NCBI GenBank assembly: GCA_033549025.1
Contig: JAWSUS010000006.1
Span: forward strand, 1 to 64,000
DNA from: Desulfuromonadales bacterium
GTDB lineage: Bacteria; Desulfobacterota; Desulfuromonadia; Desulfuromonadales; SZUA-540
Direction of reading: 5' to 3'
DNA length: 64,000 nucleotides
The translations under genes and the position numbers were made by a program. How positions within the stretch are numbered: the first letter of the stretch is position 1; the number at the start of each line of letters is the position of its first letter. The notes beneath the pieces were generated by a model. It worked only from the letters and a program-made list of their open reading frames with translations, ran no database searches and had not been told where the DNA came from. Below, piece after piece: positions 1 through 63,130 of this stretch.

Positions 1-498
1 ACGATCTAACGCCATACGAAAAGTTGCTGGATCATTTCTATGGCTTAAAAGTGTAAACAACGCGTTCAGATCTAACATTTTATTGTTTCCAGTTATTGGT
101 AAATTATATAGGTGTTGAGCTTTTTTTTAATAAAAGTAAAGACCATTTTTGTCAGTTTGTTTTGGTAAATCGCGTTGAAAAATTAAATAAAAAAAGAATT
201 TTTCGACGTGTTTGAAATCTGGCAAGACTTTATTCTTGCGCCTGAAAAGGCGCCGAAAGCGGGGTAGTCACCTGCGTGTTGTGGTGTGAACCTGAAGCGG
301 ATCACTTGTGTAAAAATTGAAAACTGGCGACTTGATTACGTTGCCAATCTGCCTCACCGGTCGTTCAACAACATAACGCAAAAGGTGTTTTAAGCGAATT
401 TTAAGGCTGAGATCACTAACCCCTGATTTTTTTTCCGTCAGTGGGGTAACGTCGGTAATGTTGGGGGTACGATCTTACTTTCTTGTATTTTTGAATTT

Positions 499-8546: not shown

Positions 8547-9926
8547 ATGGAAACCCTTCTTATTGTTGACGACAACCAGGAACTCATTACGCAACTTAAA
8601 TGGGGCTTGGGGAAGGACTACAAGGTTGTTCTGGCTGAGGATGCGGTAGGGGGACTTGCGGCCCTGGATAAGCATCAACCACGGGTCATGACCCTGGACC
8701 TTGGCCTTCCACCTGATCCGGATGGTTCGTCAGAGGGGTTGAAGTTGTTGTCTGCTGTTTTGCAGCGATCTCCTGAAACCAAGGTCATCGTAGTTACCGG
8801 ACGTGGCGAGCGTGACGTGGCCTTGAAAGCCATTCAATTAGGTGCCTATGACTTTTATCATAAGCCAATCGACCTGAGTGAACTTAAGGTGATTCTGGCA
8901 AGGGCGTTTCATCTTGCCGATCTCGAGGCGGAGAACCAGCGACTTCAATCGGCCTTGGTTGCCGAGCAAAACATGCAGGGCATATTCGGTCAATGCCCGG
9001 CGATGCAGGAAGTCTTTACGACAATAAGCAAGGTGGCGACTACCAATGTCTCTGTTTTGGTTCTCGGCGAGAGTGGGACAGGCAAGGAGTTGGTGGCCAG
9101 GGCTATGCACAGCGAAAGCCTGCGCGCCAAGGCGCCATTCATCCCTATCAACTGCGGGGCCATCCCTGAGAATCTGCTGGAGTCGGAACTATTCGGCCAT
9201 GAAAAGGGGGCTTTTACAGGGGCACAGAGCCGGGTTCATGGCAAGGTGGAATATGCCCACGGTGGCACCCTGTTTCTGGATGAAATCGGGGAACTATCGG
9301 CGCCTTTGCAAGTCAAGTTGTTGCGTTTTCTGCAGGACGGGGTCATGCAGCGGGTGGGCGGCCGCGAGGATATTGCCGTCGATGTGCGGGTGATTGCCGC
9401 GACCAATGTGGATATCGAAAAGGCCATTGCCTCGGGGGCATTCCGTGAGGACCTCTATTATCGCCTGGGGGTCATCAGCCTCTCTCTGCCGCCCCTGCGC
9501 GAACGGGGGGATGATATGCTGCTGCTGGCCAATCTTTTTCTCCATCGTTACTGCGACAGCTTCAAGAAAAAAGTGAGAGGCTTTAGTGCGGCAGCCATGA
9601 ATCAGCTGCAAACCTATGCCTGGCCTGGAAACGTGCGTGAGTTGGAGAACAAGGTGAAACGAGCGATCATTATGAGCGATGGCCCTCTGATCACCCCGGC
9701 GGATTTAGGCTTTGAGAGCTCTACGGCCAATCTGGAACCGGCAATGAAAACGACTGGCATGTCTTTGAAAGATGCCAAGGACAGGGTCGAGCGGCAGATG
9801 GTGCTGGCGGCCATTGAGCAGGAGCAGGGGAATATCGCCAAGGCGGCTGAAACCTTGGGTATCAGCCGCCCGACAATATATGATCTGATGAAAAAGCATG
9901 GACTGCATGTCAGCCCCGAGGGCTGA
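8547..9926 (+). CDS. prsR: PEP-CTERM-box sigma54-dependent response regulator PrsR
   Basis: Receiver domain (IVDD, TLDLGLPPDPD), AAA+ domain (GESGTGKE, GAFTGA, WPGNVRELEN), C-terminal HTH (LGISRPTIY). Confidence 0.9.
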   Translation: METLLIVDDNQELITQLKWGLGKDYKVVLAEDAVGGLAALDKHQPRVMTLDLGLPPDPDGSSEGLKLLSAVLQRSPETKVIVVTGRGERDVALKAIQLGAYDFYHKPIDLSELKVILARAFHLADLEAENQRLQSALVAEQNMQGIFGQCPAMQEVFTTISKVATTNVSVLVLGESGTGKELVARAMHSESLRAKAPFIPINCGAIPENLLESELFGHEKGAFTGAQSRVHGKVEYAHGGTLFLDEIGELSAPLQVKLLRFLQDGVMQRVGGREDIAVDVRVIAATNVDIEKAIASGAFREDLYYRLGVISLSLPPLRERGDDMLLLANLFLHRYCDSFKKKVRGFSAAAMNQLQTYAWPGNVRELENKVKRAIIMSDGPLITPADLGFESSTANLEPAMKTTGMSLKDAKDRVERQMVLAAIEQEQGNIAKAAETLGISRPTIYDLMKKHGLHVSPEG

Positions 9927-9934
9927 TTTTGGTC

Positions 9935-10807
9935 CTACGAGTTGGTCGTCGTGAAACTGTAGGTCGAGCTTTCGGTGACCGTTGCGCCATCGTCGGCCAC
10001 GACTTTCCAGTAATAGGTAGTATTGGGATCGAAATCAAAGATCTCAAAAGTGCTTTCCGTTAAATTATCGACTACATCCGTATATTGAGGCGCAGCGGAG
10101 ACCGGTTGATCGGTATTCACCGAACCGCTGATCGCGTCATCCCCACCTCCGCCGCCACCGCAGCTGGCCAGCAGCATGGTGGCGCCTACCAGAGCGGGAA
10201 TCACCGCTTTTCTTATTTTACGACGCTGAGGAATAGCCAGACTGAGCAGCGACAGGGCGGCGATAGCTAGTAAAACTTCCTTGTTCGGATAGAAAGGTTC
10301 GAAATTCACGCCGCCCACAGCGCCTGACTGAAGGGTCGGGTCGGTGCCGTAGTAAAGCGTGTAAACGACATCGCGGCCGTCAGTGGGATCGCTCCAGTCG
10401 AACTGCACTGTTTGGGGGAGGCCGCTGGCCTGGTTAGCAGGATATTGCAGGGAAGGGATAAAGGGGTCGGGATCCCCGGCGGTCCAGGCAATGATGTTGG
10501 AGAAGGGGCTTTCATTGCCGGCGGCATCGTAGGCCACCACCGTGAAGTAATAAACGACGCCGGTGTCTAGCCCAGTCAGTGTTGTAGAGAGAGAGTCCCC
10601 TACAATGATAGGAGAGTCACCTTCTAAGGCGCCTGTACCATCAAAAGGTGCCGTGGATGAACCTGATTTGTAGTACATTTTATAGCCGGTAACGCCTGTT
10701 GAGGGATTGGGATCCCAGGCCAGGGTCACATCGGCGGCGAAAGAGAGGGTAGCGGTGAGCAGGCACAGCAGTAGGGTGGATAAAGAGAGGACAAGTTTCG
10801 TTTTCAT
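9935..10807 (-). CDS. Secreted fibronectin type III protein with internal TM hairpin and internal lipobox
   Basis: Signal peptide MKTKLV...SFA; FN3 domain (VTLAWDP...GYKMYY...LTGLDTGVVYYFTVVAYD...NES); second FN3-like domain interrupted by two hydrophobic segments and LASCGGGGGG. ATG at 10807 chosen over the ORF-track start. Confidence 0.82.
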   Translation of the reverse strand: MKTKLVLSLSTLLLCLLTATLSFAADVTLAWDPNPSTGVTGYKMYYKSGSSTAPFDGTGALEGDSPIIVGDSLSTTLTGLDTGVVYYFTVVAYDAAGNESPFSNIIAWTAGDPDPFIPSLQYPANQASGLPQTVQFDWSDPTDGRDVVYTLYYGTDPTLQSGAVGGVNFEPFYPNKEVLLAIAALSLLSLAIPQRRKIRKAVIPALVGATMLLASCGGGGGGDDAISGSVNTDQPVSAAPQYTDVVDNLTESTFEIFDFDPNTTYYWKVVADDGATVTESSTYSFTTTNS

Positions 10808-10909: not shown

Positions 10910-10926
10910 ATCAAGTTCCATGCCAG
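10910..10926 (-). promoter_or_regulatory. sigma54 (-24/-12) promoter candidate for the FN3 gene
   Basis: Minus strand CTGGCATGGAACTTGAT: TGGCATG at -24 and TTGA in place of TTGC at -12, correctly spaced, ~100 nt upstream of the ATG. Confidence 0.6.
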
Positions 10927-11002: not shown

Positions 11003-11011
11003 TCGTTTCGG

Positions 11012-11110
11012 CGTAAAGACGGTCGACGTGAAAAGGGGAGGGCTGAAAAAGTTGTTATTTTTCGCGGCAATTCGGGGTGGAGCCAACTTTTTGGTGTCGC
11101 AATTCTGACA
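11012..11110. promoter_or_regulatory. Putative enhancer (bEBP/PrsR) boxes
   Basis: CGTAAAGACGGTCGACG (11012-11028) and TGTCGCAATTCTGACA (11095-11110, TGT-N10-ACA), upstream of the sigma54 site. Confidence 0.45.
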
Positions 11111-11287: not shown

Positions 11288-11974
11288 TTACCAAAAACGC
11301 CACTGCCCGGTTTGCAGCACGTAGATGCCCAGGGCGAGGTTGGCGATGGCGTGGGCCAGGATGCACTGGGCGATACTGCGGGTTTTGTAGAGCAGCAGAT
11401 TGAAGAGAGCGCCGGCGATGATGCCGGCGATGAGATAGTGATGTTCAAGACCAAAAAGAACGCTGGCGATTAAGAATGAGGGCCAGGTGAAGGCGCCGAT
11501 GGCGACCGTGGCGAATTGACTTTTGATGAGGTACCGGAGTAAAAAGGAGCGCCAGAAAAGCTCTTCCATGATGGGTACGACGATGACGGCCCCGGCCAGG
11601 CGACAGGCAATGAAGGCGTAGCGGTTGGCCTCTTCGGCGATGGTTTGCGGGTTGAAGCCTGCCGATTCTCCCTGCGAGATGAGACTCCAGTCGAGGTGGA
11701 TCCACAACGCGAAGATCAGCAGGCCGGTGAGGATGCTGAGCACGGTGGTTTTGAGCTGCAGCCAGTGGCGGAAGTTTATTTCATCGTAGAATTTGCGATA
11801 GAAGATCAGCAGGGCGCCGACGGAAAAGACTTTTAGGGCATAAAGAGGATAGAGGATCTGCGTATCGAGCAGGATGAGCTGCTGGCCATGGAGGTGCCGC
11901 ATCAGCTCTTCGATGCCCACGAAGACCATAAATACCGTGAAGGGAAGGACTCTGGACCAGAAGTTCTGATTCAA
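11288..11974 (-). CDS. CPBP (CAAX prenyl protease-related) intramembrane glutamic protease, PEP-CTERM locus type
   Basis: MEELFWR, FGLEH and ILAHAIAN motifs in a multi-TM protein ending GQWRFW. TTG start at 11974 is approximate; the longer ORF extension overlaps trmJ. Confidence 0.85.
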   Translation of the reverse strand: MNQNFWSRVLPFTVFMVFVGIEELMRHLHGQQLILLDTQILYPLYALKVFSVGALLIFYRKFYDEINFRHWLQLKTTVLSILTGLLIFALWIHLDWSLISQGESAGFNPQTIAEEANRYAFIACRLAGAVIVVPIMEELFWRSFLLRYLIKSQFATVAIGAFTWPSFLIASVLFGLEHHYLIAGIIAGALFNLLLYKTRSIAQCILAHAIANLALGIYVLQTGQWRFW

Positions 11975-12070
11975 TGCGCATTCCGTCTTAAGGGGTGACT
12001 TGCGGTGGCGAAGAGCGACCTCTTTCCTGCCGTTCCATTGTAAAGGGCTTTGCTGGAAAATCCAGTAGGA

Positions 12071-12826
12071 ATGAATCTGTCTATGAATCTCGATAACGTG
12101 GCGGTGGTCCTGGTCGAACCCCAGGGCGCCCTTAATATCGGCTCGGTGTGCCGGGCCATGATGAATTTCGGTTTTTCGGATCTGCGTCTGGTTGAGCCCC
12201 AGGTCGATCATCTGGCGGATGAGGCGCGGCGCATGGCCGTCAAGGCCGGCGTGCTGCTCGATGAAGCCCGGGTATTTGACAGCCTGGAGGCAGCGCTGGC
12301 CGATTGTCAGTTTGCCTTGGGAACGACCCGGCGGTTCGGCAAGTATCGCGAGGATTTTCTGCACCCGGATGAAGCGGCTGATCAGTTTCTCCCCCTGGCG
12401 GAGAGGGGGCGGGTCGCCTTGGTATTCGGACGGGAGGACAAGGGACTACTGACCAATGAGCTGGATCTGTGCCAGCGTTTTATCACCATCCCTACCCACG
12501 ATGCTTTGCCATCGATGAATCTGGCCCAGGCCGTTTCCCTCTGTCTCTATGAAACCTCCCGGGCTCTTGGCCGAGCGCAGGGAAAGGTCGCCGGCCGCAA
12601 AAAATTGGCGACGTCGAAGGTTCTGGAAGGCATGTATGCTCATCTTCGCCGCACCCTTCTCGATATCGGCTTTCTCGATCCGCAAAATCCCGACCATATT
12701 CTGCGCTCTTTTCGACGGATTTTCGGTCGCGCCGGCCTCAACGACAGGGAGGTGCGCATTCTGCACGGCTTGTGCCGGAGCATTGACTGGGTGGAAGAAG
12801 AACGAAGGAAAAAAGGTGAAAAATGA
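12071..12826 (+). CDS. trmJ: SPOUT RNA methyltransferase, TrmJ/LasT family
   Basis: VVLVEPQGALNIGSVCRAMMNFG, ALVFGREDKGL, SMNLAQAV. Start is 12071 or 12083. Confidence 0.8.
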   Translation: MNLSMNLDNVAVVLVEPQGALNIGSVCRAMMNFGFSDLRLVEPQVDHLADEARRMAVKAGVLLDEARVFDSLEAALADCQFALGTTRRFGKYREDFLHPDEAADQFLPLAERGRVALVFGREDKGLLTNELDLCQRFITIPTHDALPSMNLAQAVSLCLYETSRALGRAQGKVAGRKKLATSKVLEGMYAHLRRTLLDIGFLDPQNPDHILRSFRRIFGRAGLNDREVRILHGLCRSIDWVEEERRKKGEK

Positions 12827-23787: not shown

Positions 23788-25884
23788 ATGGCTTATCACA
23801 AGGTAGAAGTAGAGTTTAATGGTCAACCCCTTACTATCGAGACGGGAAAGATGGCCCGGCAGGCTGACGGGGCCACGGTTGTCACTTACGGTGAAACCCA
23901 GGTGCTGTGCACCGCGGTTTCTTCGACGAAGCTGCGTGAGGGACAGGACTTCTTCCCGCTGACCGTGAACTATCAGGAAAAATTCTATGCGGCCGGCAAG
24001 ATTCCGGGCTCCTTTTTTCGTCGTGAGCGCGGTACCACCGAGCGTGAAACCCTGATCTGCCGTCTTATTGACCGGCCCATGCGGCCTATGTTCCCCAAGG
24101 GATATCTTTTCGAAACGCAGATCATGCCCACGGTGATCTCCGCGGATCGCGTCAATGACCCTGATACTCTCGCTATTGTGGCCGCTTCGGCTGCTGTCCA
24201 GGTGTCAGACATCCCCTTCAATGGCCCCATTGCCGCTGTACGCGTGGGCAGAGTCGGGGGGCAGTTCGTGGCCAACCCGACACTCGAACAGATGGCGCAG
24301 AGCGATCTCGACATCATCGTTGCCGGTTCCCGGGACGCTGTTATCATGGTCGAGGGTGAATCCGAGTTTCTTTCTGAAGATGATATGCTCGAAGCGATCT
24401 TTTTTGGCCATAAGGCCATGCAGCCTTTGATTGATCTTCAAGCCAAATTGGGCGAGCTCGTTGGCAAGTCCAAGCGTGAGTTTCAGGTTCCACAGACCGA
24501 TGAGGATCTGGCTGCCAAAGTGGCAGAATTGGCGGAAGACAAGATTCGCGAGGCTTTTGCCATTCGCACCAAGCAGGAGCGCTATGCTGCCCTGGCCGAG
24601 GCAAAATCCCAGGTCAAGGAAGCCCTCGCCGCCGACTTCGCCGATCGCCTTGACGAGATTGGGGAGATCTTCGGCAAGATTGAGAAACGCGTTGTTCGTC
24701 AGATGATTATCAAGAGCAAGGTACGCATTGATGGCCGCGACATGAAAACGGTGCGGCCGATTACCTGTGAGATCGGCAACCTTCCCCGCGCTCACGGCAG
24801 CGCTCTCTTTACCCGCGGTGAAACCCAAGCTCTTGTGGCTGTGGCACTGGGAACAGCGGTGGATGAACAGCGCATGGACAATGTTCAGGGGATGGAGTTT
24901 AAAAAGTTCTACCTGCACTACAACTTTCCCCCTTTCTGCGTGGGAGAGACCAGCATGCGTCTCTTCCCGGGGCGTCGCGAGATCGGTCACGGCATGCTGG
25001 CTGAACGCTCGATCTCCAAGATTCTGCCCGCACACACGGATTTCCCCTATACCATTCGTATCGTCTCCGACATCCTTGAGTCCAACGGCTCTTCCTCTAT
25101 GGCCAGTGTCTGTGGCGGTTCCCTGGCTCTCATGGATGCTGGTGTGCCGGTCAAGGAGGCCGTCGCCGGCATCGCCATGGGACTGATCAAGGAAGGCGAC
25201 GATGTGGCTGTGCTCAGCGACATTCTGGGTGACGAAGACCATCTCGGCGATATGGACTTTAAGGTGACCGGTACCCGCAATGGGGTGACGGCTTTGCAGA
25301 TGGATATCAAGATCACCGGTGTTACCCGTGATATCATGAAGCAGGCGCTGCAGCAGGCCCGGGAAGGTCGCATCCATATCCTCGATAAAATGGCGGAAGC
25401 CATCAGCTCTGCTCGTGGAGAGCTTTCCCCTTACGCCCCCAGAATCACCACCATTTATGTCAAGTCCGACCAGGTGCGTACGGTTATCGGCTCGGGGGGT
25501 AAAACAATCCGCAGCATTATTGAGGCGACGGGCTGCTCCATCGATATCGAAGATGACGGCCGCATCAACATCGCTTCGGCCGACGGCGAAGCCAGTCAGC
25601 GGGCCGTCAAAATGATCCGTGATCTCACCCAAGAAGCCGAAGTTGGCAAGCTCTATATGGGGACGGTGCGTAAAATCATGGAATTTGGCGCATTTGTGGA
25701 GATCTTCCCTGGGACAGATGGTCTCGTACATATCTCCGAGCTGGCCAAAGAGCGTGTTCGTAATGTTACCGATGTGCTTCAGGAAGGAGACCAGGTTCTG
25801 GTCAAGGTCCTGGCCATCGACAAACAGGGGAAAATTAAGCTCTCCCGCAAAGAGGCACTTGACCAGACTCCTCCTGCGGAGTAG
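23788..25884 (+). CDS. pnp: Polyribonucleotide nucleotidyltransferase (PNPase)
   Basis: [48 protein letters not shown] and S1 domains. Confidence 0.98.
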
Positions 25885-48941: not shown

Positions 48942-49445
48942 ATGAAAATCTGGGTTGCGTTGTTCATGCTGTTGACCTGCCTGCTGGCGATACCCTGTGG
49001 GATTTTCGCGGAAGAAAATGCCGCTGAAAGTCTCGGTGGTCGCGATGAACCGATCCATGTGGTTTCCGACCAGCTCGAAGCCGACCAGGCAGGGAAAGAG
49101 GTTCGTTTTATCGGGAACGTCGTGGCCCGGCAAGGCGAGGTCGTCATGTACGCTCAAGAGATGCGCCTGGTCTACGATAGCGAAACCCGCGAGGTTGAAA
49201 AGGTCGTCGCCACCGGTGATGTGCGAATCGTGCAGGGCGACAGAGTGGCAACGGGTCAGCAGGGCACTCTCTTTAATGCCGAAAAGAAAATGGTTCTGAC
49301 CGGAAACCCCAAACTGTTTCAGGGTGAAAATTCGGTAAGCGGCGACGAAATCACAGTCTATCTCGAGGAGGAGCGAAGCACCGTGAGCAGTGCCGGGGGC
49401 TCCAGGGTGCAGGCCATCTTTCATCCGAAAGAGGAAAGCCCGTGA
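48942..49445 (+). CDS. lptA: LPS transport periplasmic protein LptA
   Basis: Signal peptide, [30 protein letters not shown]. Confidence 0.88.
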
Positions 49446-50167
49446 GTCACAAGTTGTCAGCTCGGGGACTCAGTAAGGCGTACAAGGGCCGGCAGGTAGT
49501 TCGCGGTGTGGATCTAGCGGTTTCTTCCGGTGAGGTTATCGGCCTCCTCGGGCCCAACGGCGCCGGCAAAACGACCTCCTTTTACATGGTTGTTGGGCTG
49601 ATACGCCCTGATTCCGGACGGGTTTTCCTCGATGACCTTGAGTTGACGGATTTTCCCATGTTTCAGCGCGCGAGGGCCGGTATTTCGTATCTCCCTCAGG
49701 AAGCTTCGGTTTTTCGTAAACTGACCGTGGCCCAGAATTTACTGGCTATTCTGGAAACCCTCAACATCCCTGCGGCCGAATGCAGGGCCCGGAAAGATCG
49801 TCTCCTGGAGGAATTCCGTCTCAGCCACGTAGCCGATACCTATGGATATGCACTGTCCGGTGGCGAAAGAAGGCGCCTTGAAATCGCCAGGGCCCTGGTT
49901 ATTGAACCATCTTTCATCCTGTTGGATGAGCCTTTTGCCGGAATTGACCCCATTGCCGTCATGGATATTCAGAACATTATCTCTGATTTGAAGGCCCGTG
50001 GTATCGGCGTTCTTATTTCGGATCATAACGTACGTGAAACCCTGGGTGTTTGTGACAGTGCCTACATCCTTAACGAAGGGGGAATCCTGGAACATGGAAC
50101 CCCCGCTGAAATTGCCGGGAGTGAAAAAGCTCGGGCGATCTATCTTGGGGATAAGTTTAAACTTTAA
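49442..50167 (+). CDS. lptB: LPS export ABC ATPase LptB
   Basis: [41 protein letters not shown]. Confidence 0.96.
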
Positions 50168-50220
50168 CGGCCCCCTTGGACCTGGCGAAGAAAGGGTCCA
50201 GACTTCTCTTCGGGAGTGAC

Positions 50221-51672
50221 ATGGCTTTAGAGATTCGGCAACAGCTTAAACTGAGTCAGCAACTGGTCATGACGCCGCAACTGCAGCAGGCGATCAAGCT
50301 TCTTCAGCTTTCGCGCATGGAGCTTGTTGACATGGTGCAGCAGGAACTCGAGGAAAATCCGCTTCTTGAGGAGGGGGTCGAGTCCGTCGATGAGATCGAG
50401 AAAAACCCGGATTCTCGCGATGAGGCGGAGATGGTGCAGGCCTCCTCCGAAGAGGTGAAAGAGGTCAAGGGAGAATCGGAAGGCCTCGGAGATATCGACT
50501 GGCAAACCTACCTCGAAGGATACAGCCTTGGCGGATCTACCGCCGACTACTACGAGGAAGACGATGATCGCCCCTCCTACGAAAATCTTATCACCAAAAA
50601 GGGGACCCTCACGGATCATCTGCTGTGGCAATTGAACCTGTCCCCTTTTGACGAAAGGGAGCGCCAGATTGCCGAAGAGATTATCGGCAACCTGAATGAG
50701 GACGGCTATCTGATCGCGTCTTTGGAGGAAATTGCCGAGCAGGTGCACGCTGAAATTCCAGACATAGAGTCTGTTCTCAAGAAAGTGCAGGATTTTGATC
50801 CCGTCGGCGTGGCCAGCCGCAATCTTCAGGAATGCCTTCTGAAGCAGGTGGAACAGCTTGAACTGGATAATTCCACCGTTGTGGCTATCCTGGAAAACCA
50901 CATAGGGGACCTGGAATCCCGCAAGTATCCCGCTATTGCCAAAGCTCTTGGTGTCACTCTGGATGAGGTTCTCGGTGCCGCCAAGGTTATTTCTCATCTT
51001 GACCCCCGTCCCGGCAGACCCTACTGGCAGGAAGACTCCCACTATATCGTGCCGGACGTCAGCGTATACAAAATCGGGGACGAATATGTTGTCGTTCTCA
51101 ACGACGAAGGACTGCCCAATCTTCGGATCAACTCCTTCTATCGCAGTGCGCTTTCAGGCGGTTCCGATATTGACGCGAAGGCCGGTGAGTACATTCAGGA
51201 AAAAATGCGCGGAGCCATGTGGCTGATCAAGAGCATTCATCAGCGGCAGCGGACCATCTACAAGGTGACCAAATCCATTGTGAAGTTCCAGCGCGATTTC
51301 TTCGACTGGGGCATCGAACATCTCAAGCCTCTCGTTCTCCGTGATGTCGCGGAAGATATCGAAATGCATGAATCGACTATCAGCCGGGTAACAACGAACA
51401 AATATGTCCAGACCCCGCAAGGGCTATTTGAGTTGAAATATTTCTTCAACAGTGGAATCAGCACAACGCAGGGAGAAACCATCGCCTCTGAAAGCGTCAA
51501 AAGCAAAATCAAGGAAATCATCAGCGGCGAAAACGTGAAAAAACCTTATTCTGATCAGAAACTGGTTGAGCTTTTGCGCGGCCATGGAATCGATATTGCT
51601 CGACGGACAGTAACCAAATATAGAGAAATGCTGGGGATTGGCTCATCCACCGAACGTAAGCGTCACTTTTGA
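50221..51672 (+). CDS. rpoN: RNA polymerase sigma-54 factor
   Basis: MTPQLQQAIKLLQLS, HESTISR, RpoN box ARRTVTKYRE. Confidence 0.98.
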   Translation: MALEIRQQLKLSQQLVMTPQLQQAIKLLQLSRMELVDMVQQELEENPLLEEGVESVDEIEKNPDSRDEAEMVQASSEEVKEVKGESEGLGDIDWQTYLEGYSLGGSTADYYEEDDDRPSYENLITKKGTLTDHLLWQLNLSPFDERERQIAEEIIGNLNEDGYLIASLEEIAEQVHAEIPDIESVLKKVQDFDPVGVASRNLQECLLKQVEQLELDNSTVVAILENHIGDLESRKYPAIAKALGVTLDEVLGAAKVISHLDPRPGRPYWQEDSHYIVPDVSVYKIGDEYVVVLNDEGLPNLRINSFYRSALSGGSDIDAKAGEYIQEKMRGAMWLIKSIHQRQRTIYKVTKSIVKFQRDFFDWGIEHLKPLVLRDVAEDIEMHESTISRVTTNKYVQTPQGLFELKYFFNSGISTTQGETIASESVKSKIKEIISGENVKKPYSDQKLVELLRGHGIDIARRTVTKYREMLGIGSSTERKRHF

Positions 51673-51763
51673 TGGGCCTCGGCGTGGCCATCCCCGTAAT
51701 CGGGGTTATAATTCAATAAGAAACGACTTGATCCCTCAGGGATATTTTCAACAGGAGGTATTT

Positions 51764-52312
51764 ATGCAGATTGCCGTAACATTCAGACATATGGAAACCA
51801 GCGATCCCGTTCGCACCTACGTGGAAGAAAAACTTGACCGCGTCAAAAAGTATATCGATGAGCCCATCGATGCACAGGTGGTCATTTCCGTCGAAAAGAA
51901 AATCAGGCATCGTGCCGAAGTCAATCTCGTAGCCAAGGGGATCACCATCAAGGGGTCGGAAGAGACCAACGACATGTATGCGGCCATTGACGCCGTGGTG
52001 GATAAAATCGAGCGTCAATTGAAGCGCTACAAGGAAAAACTCAAAAAACACAAGCCGCTTTCCGGGCGTGAAAGACAGGTGCAGAAAACGGTACTCGCCG
52101 CTGAAAGTATCGATGAGGGGGCTGAACAGCCCGTCATCGTGCGTACCAATCGCTTTTCGGTGAAGCCGATGTCCGTCGAAGAGGCCGTCATGCAGATGGA
52201 TCTTCTGCACAAGGAATTCCTCGTTTTCACTGATGACAAGACCGAGGAGATCAACGTGGTGTATCGCCGCAAGGATGGCAATTACGGCCTGATCGCACCC
52301 GAAAGCAAGTAA
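51764..52312 (+). CDS. hpf: Ribosome hibernation promoting factor (long HPF/RaiA)
   Basis: DMYAAID...KIERQL, KPMSVEEAVMQM, VYRRKDGNYGLI; AGGAGG RBS. Confidence 0.93.
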   Translation: MQIAVTFRHMETSDPVRTYVEEKLDRVKKYIDEPIDAQVVISVEKKIRHRAEVNLVAKGITIKGSEETNDMYAAIDAVVDKIERQLKRYKEKLKKHKPLSGRERQVQKTVLAAESIDEGAEQPVIVRTNRFSVKPMSVEEAVMQMDLLHKEFLVFTDDKTEEINVVYRRKDGNYGLIAPESK

Positions 52313-52330
52313 AAAGTAAAACAATTGCGA

Positions 52331-52361
52331 TGGGGGGAAGGATAGTGTATCCTTCCCCCCA
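52331..52361. other. Perfect 14-bp inverted repeat (hairpin) between hpf and ptsN
   Basis: TGGGGGGAAGGATA-GTG-TATCCTTCCCCCCA. Confidence 0.8.
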
Positions 52362-52399
52362 CTGATTTGAGCGAACCCTGAAAGGCTGCTTGAAGAAAC

Positions 52400-52861
52400 A
52401 TGAAGATTGCTGATTTCTTAAACGCTTCCGCTATAGCGGATGACCTGAAGGCCAGGGGCAAGAACGATGTTCTTGCCGAGTTGACGGACACCATCGTCCA
52501 TGCCGACAAGAGCCTTGATCGCGACGAAGTGATGCGAGTGCTCCAGGAGCGGGAAAAACTGGGAAGCACCGGGATCGGTGATGGGGTTGCTATCCCTCAC
52601 GGGAAACTCAAAAACATCAGCAATCTTTTGATTTCTTTTGGACGAAGTCGTGATGGGGTCGATTTTGACTCCATGGACGGCAAGCCGGCTCACCTCTTCT
52701 TTCTCCTGATTGCGCCGGAAGAATCGGTCGGCATTCACCTGAAAACCCTCGCCCGCATTTCCAAGCTGTTGAAAAACCCCGCAGTGCGGCAGAGGCTCCT
52801 CCAGGCCGAGAACGCAGGCGACATCTATTCCATTATCCTTGAAGAGGAAGAAAAGCTGTAA
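52400..52861 (+). CDS. ptsN: PTS EIIA (Ntr/fructose-mannitol type)
   Basis: REKLGSTGIGDGVAIPHGK, HLKTLARIS. Confidence 0.88.
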   Translation: MKIADFLNASAIADDLKARGKNDVLAELTDTIVHADKSLDRDEVMRVLQEREKLGSTGIGDGVAIPHGKLKNISNLLISFGRSRDGVDFDSMDGKPAHLFFLLIAPEESVGIHLKTLARISKLLKNPAVRQRLLQAENAGDIYSIILEEEEKL

Positions 52862-52936
52862 AACAAACTCCACTCAGGTTTCTTTCAGATTGTTCGGTCA
52901 TTTCTCCATCGACTTCTTTCGTATAGGGAAAATCCC

Positions 52937-53911
52937 ATGCCAGGTCTGAGCATCCAGGAATTATTGAGTGAAAAAGAGGCTGGACTAGACCTGGAGCTGC
53001 TCGCGGGTGAAAAGGGACTGAGCAACCTGGTCACCGTGCCCCGCATCCAGAAACCAGGACTGGCGCTGGCCGGATATATCACCAATCTCCATCCTGACCG
53101 CATTCAGGTTCTGGGGTCCACCGAACTCAGCTATCTTGACCATCTCCCCCCCGATACAGCCGCCTCCAACTTGCGACAACTGATCGCGCTGGACAACTCC
53201 TGCTTTATTATTACGAAGGGGCAGGATGCTCCCGAAATGCTCATCCGGGAGACGGAAAAACAAGGCACGCCCCTTTTACGAACCCACCATCAAAGCTCCA
53301 CCTTTATTTCTCTTATTACCAAATTTCTCGAAGAACGCCTGTTGCCCGCAACAACCGTTCACGGTGTTCTTGTCGAAGTGGCCGGGGTTGGCGTCCTTAT
53401 CCTGGGTAAAAGCGGCATGGGAAAAAGTGAATGTGCCCTTGACCTGGTTTTGCGAGGGCATCGACTTGTGGCCGATGACGTTGTCAAGGTTCGGTTGAAG
53501 CTTCCCGCTGTTCTTTTTGGCGAGGGAAGCGACCTGCTGCACTATCATATGGAAATACGCGGTCTGGGTATCATCAACATCAAGCACCTTTTTGGGGTGG
53601 CGGCAATCCGTGAACGAAAAAAAATAGATCTCGCTGTGGAACTGGTGGAGTGGGAGGAAGGGCGGGAATATGATCGACTCGGACTGGAAGAGCAAACCTA
53701 CAGCCTTCTGGGTGTTGAAATTCCCCTTCTCAAAATCCCTGTGCGTCCCGGTCGGAACATGACCTCCATTGTCGAAGTGGCCGCGCGCAACCAGATACTC
53801 AAGGAAATGGGATATCACAGTGCCATCGAATTTCAGGACCGCCTGGAAAAGCGCATGGCAGAGATGGCCCGCCTTCACGCTCATACCATCATAGGGGACA
53901 ATCTGGAGTAA
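52937..53911 (+). CDS. hprK: HPr kinase/phosphorylase
   Basis: HGVLVEV, GKSGMGKSE, RGHRLVADD, MEIRGLGII, PVRPGRN. Confidence 0.95.
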   Translation: MPGLSIQELLSEKEAGLDLELLAGEKGLSNLVTVPRIQKPGLALAGYITNLHPDRIQVLGSTELSYLDHLPPDTAASNLRQLIALDNSCFIITKGQDAPEMLIRETEKQGTPLLRTHHQSSTFISLITKFLEERLLPATTVHGVLVEVAGVGVLILGKSGMGKSECALDLVLRGHRLVADDVVKVRLKLPAVLFGEGSDLLHYHMEIRGLGIINIKHLFGVAAIRERKKIDLAVELVEWEEGREYDRLGLEEQTYSLLGVEIPLLKIPVRPGRNMTSIVEVAARNQILKEMGYHSAIEFQDRLEKRMAEMARLHAHTIIGDNLE

Positions 53912-53917
53912 TTCTGC

Positions 53918-54775
53918 ATGCGCCTGATCATTATCACGGGGATGTCCGGTTCTGGGAAAAGCACCGCTGCCCGTGCCCTTGAAGATGACGGTTTTTTTGT
54001 CATAGACAACCTTCCGCCGGTGATGCTGCCCACATTTCTTGAGGTGACCCAGGAACAGAGGACTGACGCTCAAGATATTGCTGTGGTCATGGATGTTCGC
54101 AGCCGCAGTTTTCTGCATGGCTGTGAGAGAGTTCTGGTCTCAATGGCGCAGCAGGGGCATGAAGTTGAAATCCTCTTTTTTGAGGCGACGGATGAAATGC
54201 TCGTTCGGCGGTACTCGGAAACCCGTCGCCGGCATCCCATGTCTCTTAACGGAGGGGTCCAGGAGGGCATTCTGCGCGAACGAATGCTTTTGGACCCTCT
54301 GCGAAAATTGAGCACCACCCTCATCGATACGACCCAACTGAGTCCTCATCAGTTGCGCGACAAGGTCATCAATGCGGTCTGTGGTCATGAGGGCAGTACT
54401 CCTTTGGCCGTATGTCTGCAGTCCTTTGGCTTTCGCTACGGTATCCCGCCGGGCTCCGATCTGGTTATCGATGTCCGCTTTCTGCCGAATCCTCATTTTG
54501 TCAAAGATTTGCGGCCATTTACCGGCAAGGATGCCGCCGTGCAGGAGTTCGTGTTGAATCAACCGGTCTGCCAGGAGTTTCTCGAGCGTTTTAAGGGGTT
54601 GCTCGAATTTCTGCTGCCGCAGTATCGTTCCGAAGGTAAAAGCTACCTGACCCTGTCCATTGGCTGTACGGGGGGGCGGCATCGCAGTGTGACGCTTGTT
54701 GAAGCACTACGGTCTGTTTTTGATATCGAAGGAATTTCACTCGAAGTTGTTCATCGGGATATAGCGAAAGGATAG
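53918..54775 (+). CDS. rapZ: RNase adapter RapZ (YvcJ family P-loop protein)
   Basis: GMSGSGKS, RRYSETRRRHP, SFGFRYG, GCTGGRHRSV. Confidence 0.93.
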   Translation: MRLIIITGMSGSGKSTAARALEDDGFFVIDNLPPVMLPTFLEVTQEQRTDAQDIAVVMDVRSRSFLHGCERVLVSMAQQGHEVEILFFEATDEMLVRRYSETRRRHPMSLNGGVQEGILRERMLLDPLRKLSTTLIDTTQLSPHQLRDKVINAVCGHEGSTPLAVCLQSFGFRYGIPPGSDLVIDVRFLPNPHFVKDLRPFTGKDAAVQEFVLNQPVCQEFLERFKGLLEFLLPQYRSEGKSYLTLSIGCTGGRHRSVTLVEALRSVFDIEGISLEVVHRDIAKG

Positions 54776-59288: not shown

Positions 59289-60458
59289 ATGCCAATGACT
59301 GATTTCCTGTTCACATCCGAATCGGTAAGCGAAGGCCACCCGGATAAAGTGGCCGATCAGATTTCGGATGCCATTCTTGACGCCATTCTCAGCCAGGACA
59401 CCAAGGCCCGCGTAGCCTGTGAGACTCTCGTGACCACAGGTATGGCCATGATCGCCGGCGAGATCACCACGAGCGCTTATGTCGATATGCCGCAAATCGT
59501 GCGGAATACGATCAAAGAAATCGGTTACGACGATTCTTCCATGGGGTTCGATTACGAAACCTGTGCCGTCCTGACTTCTATTGACCGCCAGTCGCCCGAC
59601 ATCTCTCAGGGGGTCACCGAGGGAGAGGGCCTGTACAAGGATCAGGGCGCCGGGGATCAGGGTCTCATGTTCGGTTATGCCTGTGACGAAACGGCGGAAC
59701 TGATGCCTATGCCCATCATGTTTGCCCATCGTCTGACCAAGCGTCTGGCCGATGTGCGCAAGGGCAAGTTGGTTTCCTTTCTTCGCCCTGACAGCAAGTC
59801 GCAGGTTTCCATTCAGTACATCAACGACAAGCCTATCCGGGTCGATTCAGTCGTCATTTCCTCCCAGCATACCCCTGACGTAAGTTACGACACGCTCCGG
59901 GAATTCATCATGGAAGAAGTCATTAAGCCGATTATTCCTGCGGAACTTCTCGATGAAAAAACCAAGTATTTCATCAATCCTACCGGACGTTTTGTCGTCG
60001 GCGGACCCATGGGTGACTGTGGTCTCACCGGGCGTAAAATTATCGTCGACACCTACGGCGGCCAGGGCTCTCACGGCGGCGGGGCTTTTTCCGGCAAAGA
60101 TCCCAGCAAGGTCGATCGCAGTGCCTCGTACATGGCCCGCTATGTCGCTAAAAATATCGTCGCTGCCGGCCTCGCCAGTAAATGCGAGGTCCAACTGGCC
60201 TATGCGATCGGTGTTGCCGACCCCGTCTCGGTGATGATCAACACCTTCGGTACGGGGAAAATTCCATCCAACGACATTGCCAGCATCGTTCAGGAAGAAT
60301 TCGATATGCGCCCGTCCGGCATCATCAAGACCCTTGACCTGCTGCGGCCAATCTATCGCAAGACGGCGGCTTACGGGCACTTTGGCAGGGAGCTGCCTGA
60401 GTTTAGTTGGGAAAAAACCGACCGCGTCGACTCCCTGCGCAAGCGCGCCGGCATGTGA
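59289..60458 (+). CDS. metK: S-adenosylmethionine synthetase
   Basis: [35 protein letters not shown]. Confidence 0.98.
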
Positions 60459-60472
60459 GGCGTTAGAGAGTG

Positions 60473-60513
60473 AAAACAAAAAGGCGGACCTTGCGGTTCG
60501 CCTTTTTGTTTTT
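60473..60513. terminator. Intrinsic (bidirectional-type) terminator after metK
   Basis: AAAACAAAAAGGCGGACC-TTGC-GGTTCGCCTTTTTGTTTT. Confidence 0.85.
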
Positions 60514-60525
60514 CAGGAGGATGTC

Positions 60526-61662
60526 TTGGAGCTTTTTTCACCCGCTGAGCCTGCTCCTCAACTGTGCGTTATCGTGCCTGTCTACAACGAGGCAGCGACT
60601 CTCCCCGCTCTTTTTTCTAACCTTGAAAGTCAGGCGGGCATACGGTTTGAAGTGATTCTGGTCGATGGAGGGTCGGCCGATGATACCTTCGCCTTGGGCG
60701 AGAAATTCGCTGCCGCCGTCCCCTTTGAATGCCGAGTTCTCAGGGCCAATAAGGGGAGGGCGTCCCAACTCAATGTCGGCGCCTGCCATGCCACAGCTCC
60801 TGTGCTGCTCTTTCTCCATGCCGACTGTTGTTTTTCTCACCCCCTGGCGTTGGCCGGCGGCCTGGAATCCCTGGCGACAGCCTGGGAACACTGTGGGCAT
60901 CGACGCCTTGCCGGGCGCTTCTCCCTACGGTTTCTGCGCCAAAAGGACAAACCGTACCAGGGGTACTTTTACTACGAAGCCAAGGCACGGCTGAATCGTC
61001 CTCAATGCATCCACGGGGATCAGGGCTTCATGATGGCAGCCGACTTTTTTGACGAACTGGGCCGGTTTGATGAGAACCTCCCTATTCTTGAAGATACCCA
61101 ACTGGCTGACCGTGTTCTGGCCGTGGGGCAGTGGCTGCTTTTTCCGGCGGATATTCTGACCTCGGCCAGACGTTTCGAAACTGAAGGTCTGGTTGCCCGC
61201 CAATGTCTCAATGCTTTAATCGTCAATTTCGCCATAATCGGATTCGATGCCTTTTTCGAAAAGGCGGCCGCCCTCTATCGCACCCACGACCAAAGCCGCC
61301 CCCTGCATCTTCGGCCCTTTCTCAGGCTCGTTCATCAACTCGTGAGGCAACAATCCCTTCGGCGTCAACTGGGGATATGGTATCGCACCGGTAAATACGT
61401 TCGTTCGCAGGGCTGGCAATTGGCGTTCTGGGCAGATGTCAGTCGGGCCTTTAAGCGTGGGGTTGCGCTTCCCGAGATTCGCACCCCTTTTCTCAAACGC
61501 TTCGATCGTGTGTGGGATGCGTTCACCGACCACCCTTTAGGAAACGGGTTGGCGACAGTGTTGACCGCGATCGGCTTTTACCTGGCCTTTGCCTGGCTGG
61601 CCATGACGGAAAGCCGTTTTTTCATCAAGGTGATGCCGTTGATCAGGGGAGGAAAGTCATGA
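60526..61662 (+). CDS. Family 2 glycosyltransferase (TIGR04283-like) with C-terminal extension
   Basis: VIVPVYNEA, VDGGSAD, GRASQLNVGA, LFLHAD, GDQG, ED, TSARRF; AGGAGG RBS then TTG at 60526. Confidence 0.82.
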   Translation: MELFSPAEPAPQLCVIVPVYNEAATLPALFSNLESQAGIRFEVILVDGGSADDTFALGEKFAAAVPFECRVLRANKGRASQLNVGACHATAPVLLFLHADCCFSHPLALAGGLESLATAWEHCGHRRLAGRFSLRFLRQKDKPYQGYFYYEAKARLNRPQCIHGDQGFMMAADFFDELGRFDENLPILEDTQLADRVLAVGQWLLFPADILTSARRFETEGLVARQCLNALIVNFAIIGFDAFFEKAAALYRTHDQSRPLHLRPFLRLVHQLVRQQSLRRQLGIWYRTGKYVRSQGWQLAFWADVSRAFKRGVALPEIRTPFLKRFDRVWDAFTDHPLGNGLATVLTAIGFYLAFAWLAMTESRFFIKVMPLIRGGKS

Positions 61663-62188: not shown

Positions 62189-63130
62189 TTGGTCCTTTCA
62201 CTCTTAAAATCTCTCGCCGATTCAACGCGTCTGAGGCTTGTTTCCCTGCTTTACCGGGGGGAATTTACCGTTCAGGAACTGACCGAAATTTTGGGCATGG
62301 GTCAGTCGCGGGTATCGCGCCACCTCAAACTTCTCCTGGATGAAGAGATTTTGAGCGTGCGGCGTCAAGGCACCTGGTCATACTATCGTGTCTGCCAGGA
62401 AAATGCGCTGTTTGTCGCGATGTGGCCGGCCCTTGATGCTTCTCTGGCCGAGGAAACCTCCAGTGGGGAAGATTTTCGGGCCATGGCGGCGATTTATGAA
62501 AAAAGGCGTCGAAAAAGCCAGGATTTTTTCAACCATTACGCCAGTGAATGGGACGGACTTTCCCGCCGCCTGCTTCCTACTGTCCCTTACGGTGAGCATC
62601 TTCTCGCTCGCATTCGTCCCTGTGAAAATCTCGTGGAGGTTGGCGTCGGTACAGGCAATCTCCTCCCTTCGCTGATGTCCCGGGCCCAGACAGTGATTGG
62701 CGTGGACCAGTCTCCGGCGATGCTGGCACAGGCCCGTCATCGTATCGGTCAGAAGGAGCATGGGCAGGTCGAACTGCGCCTTGGCGAGATGTCTCATCTG
62801 CCGGTTCTTTCCGCCAGCGCGGATACCGTTCTGGTGAGCATGGTTCTTCATCATGCCGCCGACCCGGAAAATGTCTTCAAAGAGTTTGCCCGGGTGATGA
62901 GGGAGGAAGGGACATTGGTGATCGCCGACCTGCTTCCCCATCAACACGAATGGGCCCGCGACAGCCTGGCTGATCTCTGGCTCGGCTTTGAGCGCAATGA
63001 TATCGAACGATGGCTGGAGGCGGCGGGACTTCTCCTGACAGGCTACGTGGAAATTCAGGGAACAGCCGACAGACAGGGTATTTTTATTTTAGAAGCGACC
63101 AAAAGAGGGATAAACCAGACAACCAAGTGA
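62189..63130 (+). CDS. sahR: ArsR-HTH + SAM-binding methyltransferase-domain regulator (SahR)
   Basis: [11 protein letters not shown]...[34 protein letters not shown]; directly upstream of ahcY. Confidence 0.8.

Follow-up and report, generated by a model that had tools for sequence, protein, structure and literature searches.

We report a small exported protein, P0001, whose last fibronectin type III (FN3) domain is interrupted by a transmembrane hairpin that ends in a lipoprotein-type signal. Its gene (9935..10807, minus strand; 290 aa; stop codon, 9935-9937) lies within positions 1 to 64,000 of contig JAWSUS010000006.1 of a Desulfuromonadales bacterium (GenBank assembly GCA_033549025.1); this whole stretch of 64,000 nucleotides (nt) is called the window below. 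By its sequence, P0001 is a divergent variant, outside the membership threshold, of the lipo-invert tail already catalogued as NCBIfam NF058595. With moderate confidence, we favor a mechanism in which Lgt and LspA would lipidate the protein and cut it at Cys216, leaving the lipidated tail clasped in the FN3 domain. P0001 is a well-conserved, small, and experimentally convenient example of this catalogued, unpublished design.

All features of the protein are given on the minus strand. An N-terminal Sec signal peptide (residues 1-24, 10736..10807; MKTKLVLSLSTLLLCLLTATLSFA, with putative cleavage before AD) is read from the sequence and was modeled by AlphaFold2 as a helix at residues 2-21. Orthologues are 277-311 aa long and have their N termini at the signal peptide in sequence comparison; the start at 10807 is preferred over an ATG at 10921. 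A complete first FN3 domain follows (residues 25-112, 10472..10735; Pfam PF00041 at 26-105, E value of 9.7e-11; predicted local distance difference test score [pLDDT], 92-98). The second FN3 domain (PSLQYP...VQFDWS...VVYTLYYGTD) breaks off at about residues 156-160, resumes at about residue 242, and runs to the stop codon after YSFTT, an interruption of some 83-87 residues located 3' of strand C. Its N-part holds AlphaFold2 strands A, B, and C (residues 113-160, 10328..10471, ending in YTLYYGTD; pLDDT, 89-98), and its C-part holds strands C', E, F, and G (residues 242-290, 9938..10084; NLTESTFEIFDFDPNTTYYWKVVADDG...YSFTT, with TTYYWKVV and SFTT; pLDDT, 91-97).

The insert opens with a variable linker 5' of the first helix (residues 161-175, 10283..10327, including FEPFYPN; 0.2-1.2 bits/column; pLDDT <50 at 163-172). 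Next come the first transmembrane helix, TM1 (residues 176-191, 10235..10282, an AlphaFold2 helix and predicted stop-transfer segment; hydrophobic core VLLAIAALSLLSLAI at 178-192), and the basic turn IPQRRKIRK (residues 192-200, 10208..10234; 5 K/R and no D/E), predicted to be cytoplasmic. The second helix, TM2 (residues 201-215, 10163..10207; AVIPALVGATMLLAS), is read as the h-region of an internal lipoprotein-type signal with lipobox LLAS, based on lipobox conservation, a length like that of a signal peptide, and an AlphaFold2 helix at 196-215. Cys216 (10160..10162), conserved in orthologues, is predicted to accept the diacylglyceryl group and to serve LspA as residue +1. Six glycines (217-222) and a polar tether complete the insert (together residues 217-241, 10085..10159; G217-G220 conserved; pLDDT <50 at 217-237). 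The translation agrees exactly with the anatomy described in an earlier sequence-only reading of this DNA, from the signal peptide through both FN3 domains and the hairpin to LLASC and the poly-Gly run.

That reading also took the two flanks to be halves of one domain, and the structure models bear this out. In the AlphaFold2 models, both halves together form a single FN3 domain, a seven-strand beta-sandwich with the hairpin looped out. For 21 aligned modules (split domain plus insert), pLDDT was 93-98 at module residues 1-45 and 128-178 and <50 in most of the insert; full-length P0001, modeled with 120 orthologues, had a mean pLDDT of 83.6, one helix at 176-191, and another at 196-215 that stops exactly at Cys216. 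VIA-align of the module model (range 1..178) against single solved FN3 domains gave a Z score of 10.4 (root mean square deviation, 2.8; 90 residues aligned), and Pfam PF16656 matched P0001 residues 240-287. One refinement of the earlier reading concerns the cut, which falls between strands C and C': A-B-C belong to the N-part and C'-E-F-G to the tail.

Unsplit relatives were used for comparison. In P0065, a protein of unsplit FN3 repeats, the counterparts of module residues 3-45 and 133-175 are only 4 residues apart (126-166 and 171-217). A search of 1.84 billion representative proteins with the module profile returned 4158 at an E value of ≤0.001, the best matches being tandem unsplit FN3 repeats, which match the profile as separate first-half and second-half stretches; single-stretch split modules numbered 9 among the 150 proteins listed. 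P0065, too, has a lipoprotein signal, at its N terminus (MKRIVPLTLSVMLLMVSC), and its residues 1-20 align loosely with module residues 88-104, i.e., TM2 (E value of 4.8, not significant). This hints at a possible origin of the tail in the N-terminal end of a P0065-like lipoprotein.

As separate chains, the N-part (columns 1-52) and the tail (columns 104-178) received an association score of 0.53 (best control, 0.00), which lends weak support to a two-chain domain: 116 of 157 solved complexes attain the mark for this prediction, as do 2 of 215 mismatched pairs, and scores of ≤0.60 hold only 18 of the 157 complexes plus both mismatched pairs that passed. At least 98% of contacts agreed between runs, with partner pLDDT of at least 66. 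Since the two chains derive from a single known fold, this pass may be due to FN3 structures that the predictor had learned.

Lipobox conservation and distribution

Orthologues were taken as the best 120 of 158 proteins found at an E value of ≤1e-5 in a whole-protein search; named homologues are annotated as "fibronectin type III domain-containing protein" or "hypothetical protein" and come from Desulfuromusa, Syntrophotaleaceae, Geopsychrobacter, Geothermobacteraceae, and Desulfuromonadales. Of the 120, 118 have the lipobox Cys, and these are all the full-length orthologues; the other two are fragments of 170 and 215 aa. Among the 118, 91 have L at position -3. At position -2, T (56), S (21), and A (20) account for 97, and at position -1, A (68), G (29), and S (20) account for 117, the remaining one having N. 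Per column, C216 is 100% conserved, G217-G220 92-98%, and L213 77%; the transmembrane columns are hydrophobic (0.8-0.96) yet variable in sequence (only 0.8-2.4 bits). W138, Y265, and W267 are also invariant in the family columns of P0001, and the Cys is invariant in 21/21 aligned modules, along with W26, Y153, W155, and F173 (module numbering).

The surroundings of the Cys are likewise those of a lipoprotein signal. In P0001, LLAS-C216 fits the lipobox pattern [LVI][ASTVI][GAS]C and follows RRKIRK and 15 uncharged residues; the signal starts at about residue 195 of 290 rather than at the N terminus, where a signal for Sec and signal peptidase II (Sec/SPII) stands. Over the 118 orthologues, median values are 4 K/R and 0 D/E for the basic turn, 21.5 residues for the uncharged stretch that precedes it, and 76 residues (range, 63-91) for the tail beyond the Cys. 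The Cys stands at a median distance of 16 (interquartile range [IQR], 15-18; range, 13-27) from the last K/R, versus 14 (IQR, 13-16; range, 9-20) in native lipoproteins of the same genome, a set of 100 N-terminal candidates picked by a crude regular expression. The genome encodes a single lgt (267 bits) and a single lspA (148 bits), both over the cut-off. These sequence data support the proposal, made in the sequence-only reading together with a call for a check of Cys conservation, that the second helix has the properties of a Sec/SPII-type lipoprotein signal, and they indicate that it is under selection.

Ordinary lipoproteins starting with C-GGGGGG are present in the genome. A CGG start is found in only 5/100 native candidates, so the poly-Gly run belongs to the module rather than to the organism. 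One orthologue (L049, 1745-2893, minus strand; G013:C15) has no poly-Gly and a tether enlarged by a long (TSG)n repeat; tether length can therefore vary greatly. Upstream of TM1, no conserved motif was found (0.2-1.2 bits/column; the sole Pro, P171, is kept in 59%), and with so little information there is no visible sortase-type recognition motif.

A two-row profile search of 41 Desulfuromonadales genomes (E value of ≤0.001) gave matches in 31, with both halves in one open frame in 29 (27 as a single match and 2 in two pieces) and weak partial matches only in the remaining 2. The module is borne by two protein families, the small FN3 protein and an S8 protease, both of which occur in the genome of the window (G000). 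The S8 subtilase (G000:C1:224296-224769, minus strand, equal to L001 1402-3147, minus strand; 581 aa or more) ends in the same tail of split FN3, hairpin, and LLVSC-GGGGGGG (...ILLLGTGLLLGAGLWSKRRHGAISLLLCLVAAGWLLVSCGGGGGGG...YYWKVV...FTLQ). Its TM1, ESTILLLGTGLLLGAGLWSKRRHG, is closer to the PEP-CTERM tails of the genome than is the TM1 of P0001. Among 301 genomes sampled evenly from the phylum, 5 carried the full-length module (4 of the same order and 1 of another family) and 2 more matched with the second half only; this search scored at most 11 candidates per genome and may have missed modules. A related-locus search with a seven-row alignment (pattern [SG]CGGGGGG) confirmed at least one locus. 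The statement in the sequence-only reading that similar tails occur in other phyla is supported: a choice-of-anchor-D protein of 450 aa, encoded in a Nitrospiraceae metagenome-assembled genome (QZKC01000014.1), ends in this tail as well. Passengers of the module include FN3, Peptidase_S8, CBM96 plus immunoglobulin-like, and choice-of-anchor D domains, and the tail is always C-terminal. The arrangement is far beyond chance because it recurs, in a second protein of the genome, in 21/21 modules, and in 118/120 orthologues.

The design was already catalogued, and the earlier suggestion of a new system is not supported. In NCBIfam release 20.0 (June 2026), NF058595.1 (invert_tail, lipo-invert putative C-terminal anchoring domain) has a cut-off of 37 bits. 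The hairpin-lipobox of P0001 (residues 179-222) matches profile positions 33-78 at 21.5 bits, below that cut-off (module alone, 22.5 bits; best of the genome, 27.9 bits). NF058595 matches 21/21 aligned modules at an E value of ≤0.01 and 119/120 orthologues at an E value of ≤1, and a metagenomic protein of the same split-FN3 architecture, P0104, exceeds the cut-off at 39.2 bits. What P0001 shares with the family is a lipoprotein-type signal near the C terminus as an anchor; it has the C-terminal helix, basic turn, lipoprotein-signal-like helix with Cys, and short tail that the family name and one passing protein (P0104) suggest for NF058595. No protein over the cut-off was found in the 301 sampled genomes, so the Desulfuromonadales families appear to form a divergent branch of this design. 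A literature search found no paper on lipo-invert or NF058595, on an internal or C-terminal lipobox, or on an internal lipoprotein signal of this design.

Mechanism and alternatives

In the mechanism that we favor, P0001 would be exported via its N-terminal Sec signal until TM1 stops transfer; the basic turn would stay cytoplasmic, and TM2 would thread the last 75 residues back out. This topology would place both halves of the last FN3 domain outside the inner membrane, where they would fold into one beta-sandwich. TM2 would then serve as a true lipoprotein signal, with Lgt adding diacylglycerol to Cys216 and LspA cutting between Ser215 and Cys216, and the lipidated 75-residue tail (C'-E-F-G) would stay locked to strands A-B-C of the N-part. 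A lipid close to the C-terminal end would thus tether a passenger with a free N terminus to the membrane, and TM1 would hold it too, at least initially. We lean towards the view that no dedicated enzyme cuts TM1 and that the general Sec, Lgt, and LspA machinery is sufficient.

Several points weigh against this mechanism. What the data give is the anatomy, its conservation, a predicted single fold, and the presence of lgt and lspA; we infer the topology, the lipidation, the cleavage, and the lasting association of the two fragments. If TM1 stays, the lipid adds little over a plain transmembrane anchor, and the purpose of the design is left unexplained. A natural two-gene version would have shown that the fragments are able to work as separate chains; when residues 196-290 were searched against proteins of 30-158 aa, none of the 18 candidates reached an E value of ≤0.001. 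The compared genomes are related, so the counts are not independent, and the native lipoprotein set was crudely chosen. Two orthologues have no poly-Gly after the Cys (CGDGSD and CGADNS), and P0001 itself scores below the NF058595 cut-off.

An artefact is the least of the competing explanations. TM1 with its basic cluster resembles the end of a protein and TM2 the start of one, the latter even aligning loosely with the N-terminal signal of P0065, as might be seen if assembly or annotation had fused a PEP-CTERM-like gene to a downstream lipoprotein gene, or if the tail had an internal start. However, the frame is uninterrupted in 118/120 orthologues from many independent assemblies and in 29/41 genomes, the flanks together make up a single domain, no tail that forms a protein by itself turned up among proteins of 30-158 aa, and TM2 is not preceded by a start codon, Met or other, with a basic n-region. 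Assembly fusion, which the sequence-only reading had named as a possible refutation, and an internal start are both rejected on this conservation across orthologues and genomes, and we give them next to no credence. A plain two-helix anchor is a more serious rival: the hairpin would never be cut, and the Cys would be kept for uncleaved lipidation, for a thioether or disulphide bond, or for helix packing. A hairpin alone would indeed suffice for anchoring, AlphaFold2 models two helices, and no module-specific processing enzyme was found; yet the whole lipobox is kept, with positions -3, -2, and -1 following the Lgt/LspA rule in almost every orthologue, TM2 has the length of a signal peptide, and the Cys marks the exact outer end of TM2 and leads into a flexible tether, an arrangement shared with ordinary lipoproteins of the genome. 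We judge a plain anchor improbable.

The hairpin might instead be excised in full, by LspA at Cys216 and by a second protease (exosortase, CPBP, rhomboid, or site-2 protease) at or before TM1, which we consider unlikely. The same low probability attaches to the outcome of that model, an N-part held solely by strand complementation that could travel with the tail, e.g., via Lol to the outer membrane or surface. Excision would explain the need for a lipid besides TM1. TM1 is Gly/Leu rich and followed by an Arg cluster, like the PEP-CTERM tails of the genome (PVPEPGTLLLLGLGLAGLGFYRRSRR versus ESTILLLGTGLLLGAGLWSKRRHG in the S8 protein), the gene lies between prsR and a CPBP protease gene, and CPBP enzymes can act as sorting proteases according to PMC11980579. 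Against it, TIGR02595 finds the three true PEP-CTERM tails of the genome (C35, C47, and C5; PVPEP...RRSRR-stop) but matches neither split-FN3 protein, and so neither TM1, at an E value of ≤0.01; nor is it among the 25 families listed, out of 39, for the 120 orthologues. No motif is conserved before TM1. The CPBP family TIGR03008 was found in 16/41 genomes, was not found in 16 of the 31 with a module match, and adjoins the module only within this genus. An exosortase is present in the genome (TIGR02602, 212.8 bits; G000:C26) and over the cut-off in 23/41 genomes; 8 genomes carrying a full-length module gave no exosortase match, and 4 of these have a rated completeness of 100%. The proposal of the sequence-only reading that TM1 is a sorting signal of the PEP-CTERM type is rejected, there being no TIGR02595 match; so is a dedicated processing enzyme in the form of the CPBP protease or the exosortase, since neither co-occurs with the module as had been expected of a partner protease. 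A general intramembrane protease might still clip TM1, making the hairpin disposable and leaving a two-chain FN3 domain with a 75-residue lipidated strand donor, like a bacterial glycosylphosphatidylinositol anchor; this we find doubtful. It is an equally doubtful extension of this idea that passengers with free N termini (the PrsR-regulated FN3 protein and S8 proteases with N-terminal pro-regions) would pass via Lol to the outer membrane or surface.

The prsR neighborhood

The gene for the PEP-CTERM-box sigma-54 response regulator, prsR (8547..9926, plus strand; TIGR02915, 651 bits against a cut-off of 502.6), is convergent with the FN3 gene and ends 8 nt away from it. The small family (signal peptide, FN3, and split FN3; 281-382 aa) was seen in 15/41 genomes, i.e., in 15 of the 23 with PrsR over the cut-off and in 0 of the 18 without. 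It lies within 300 nt of prsR in 11 of the 15 (G000, G002, G005, G013, G015, G021, G025, G028, G032, G033, and G036) and about 2 kb from it in 2 more (G001 and G019, making 13/15 within about 2 kb); the distance is 7.7 kb in G038 and 24 kb in G016. All 7 neighboring open reading frames (ORFs) that were scanned are PrsR (597-662 bits). In G001, of the same genus, the adjacency is broken by a gene for a 591-aa exported protein (L051 965-2740, plus strand; G001:C3) between the split-FN3 gene and prsR. A prsR neighbor conserved across many genera is a candidate structural member of the PEP-CTERM/exopolysaccharide regulon, and the small FN3 family is probably an envelope component of this PrsK/PrsR regulon.

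The upstream neighbor on the same strand (11291..11956, minus strand) encodes a PEP-CTERM-associated CPBP/CAAX-type intramembrane protease (TIGR03008, 265-266 bits against a cut-off of 81). Its longest ORF (window 11288-12364, minus strand; 358 aa; GTG start) overlaps a TrmJ-like methyltransferase gene (12050-12826, plus strand) by about 300 nt. The family match covers only residues 137-358, which puts the probable true start near 11956-12000.

A sigma-54-type promoter candidate, TGGCATGGAACTTGAT (10910..10925, minus strand; pattern match), has GA rather than GC in its -12 element. The 16 letters are identical at all 3 same-genus loci despite differing flanks, and canonical GG-N10-GC sites stand upstream of 4 other orthologues. 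The pattern occurs 24 times in the window against 31 expected, so that it is no evidence on its own there. Further upstream, GTCGACCGTCTTTACGC (11011..11027, minus strand) resembles the GTCG-N6-TTTACAC boxes of the PEP-CTERM genes of the genome, a hint from sequence that it may be a PrsR enhancer box; the pattern was widened to take in this site and is partly circular, with 7 genome matches against about 2.8 expected, and the box is not kept in locus L010. The three PEP-CTERM genes of the genome are preceded by boxes of the GTCG-N6-TTTACAC type (C47:827-843; C5:24766-24782 and 24864-24880; C35:24789-24805), two of the boxes having a canonical sigma-54 promoter 48-58 nt further on. Such boxes, here in a member of the Desulfuromonadales, fit the PEP-CTERM box of Haft et al. 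2006 (PMC1569441).

Elsewhere in the window (49442-54772, plus strand), lptB, rpoN (sigma-54), hpf, ptsN, hprK, and rapZ are followed by phosphotransferase system components; sigma-54 is thus encoded about 40 kb from prsK/prsR. An ORF at 60277-61659 (plus strand) matches TIGR04283, an arsenosugar-biosynthesis glycosyltransferase (185.1 bits against a cut-off of 182), and an ArsR/SmtB regulator is encoded near it (62189-63127).

Comparison with known systems

With classical lipoproteins (Lgt, LspA, and Lnt), P0001 shares a basic n-region, a short h-region, a lipobox of the form L-[TSA]-[AGS]-C, and a flexible tether after the Cys. It differs in that the signal is internal, 200 residues from the N terminus and behind a stop-transfer helix, and in that the mature lipoprotein would be a mere half-domain of 75 residues. 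Like PEP-CTERM tails (TIGR02595; Haft et al. 2006, PMC1569441), it has a Gly/Leu-rich hydrophobic helix followed by an Arg/Lys cluster, and its locus holds prsK, prsR, a PEP-CTERM-associated CPBP protease, and an upstream sigma-54-type promoter. The segment in P0001, however, has no PEP motif and no match to the hidden Markov model, and it is internal rather than C-terminal.

GlyGly-CTERM, the tag of rhombosortase, is a C-terminal tether tag of exported Gram-negative proteins. MYXO-CTERM, the tag of myxosortase, is likewise a C-terminal tag that tethers exported Gram-negative proteins, with an invariant Cys, predicted to be lipidated, before a helix and an Arg-rich end (PMC11980579). In both, a motif precedes a single helix that is removed by a dedicated intramembrane protease; a word search of the myxosortase preprint returned no lipobox, Lgt, "lipoprotein signal," or hairpin. 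The Cys of P0001, in contrast, stands after a second helix, within a standard lipobox, and is followed by a folded half-domain, and no dedicated protease, to judge from TIGR03008 and exosortase, tracks the split-FN3 module.

New here are the small family beside prsR, its sigma-54-type promoters, the absence of a motif before TM1 in the orthologues, and the finding that neither the CPBP protease nor the exosortase tracks the module. C-terminal tethering in Gram-negative bacteria has so far been known, to our knowledge, from dedicated sorting enzymes, namely, exosortase, rhombosortase, myxosortase, and the type IX sortase. If the mechanism that we favor is true, a tail that uses the universal lipoprotein machinery and a two-chain domain would add to them a new principle of protein anchoring and an attractive tool for surface display.

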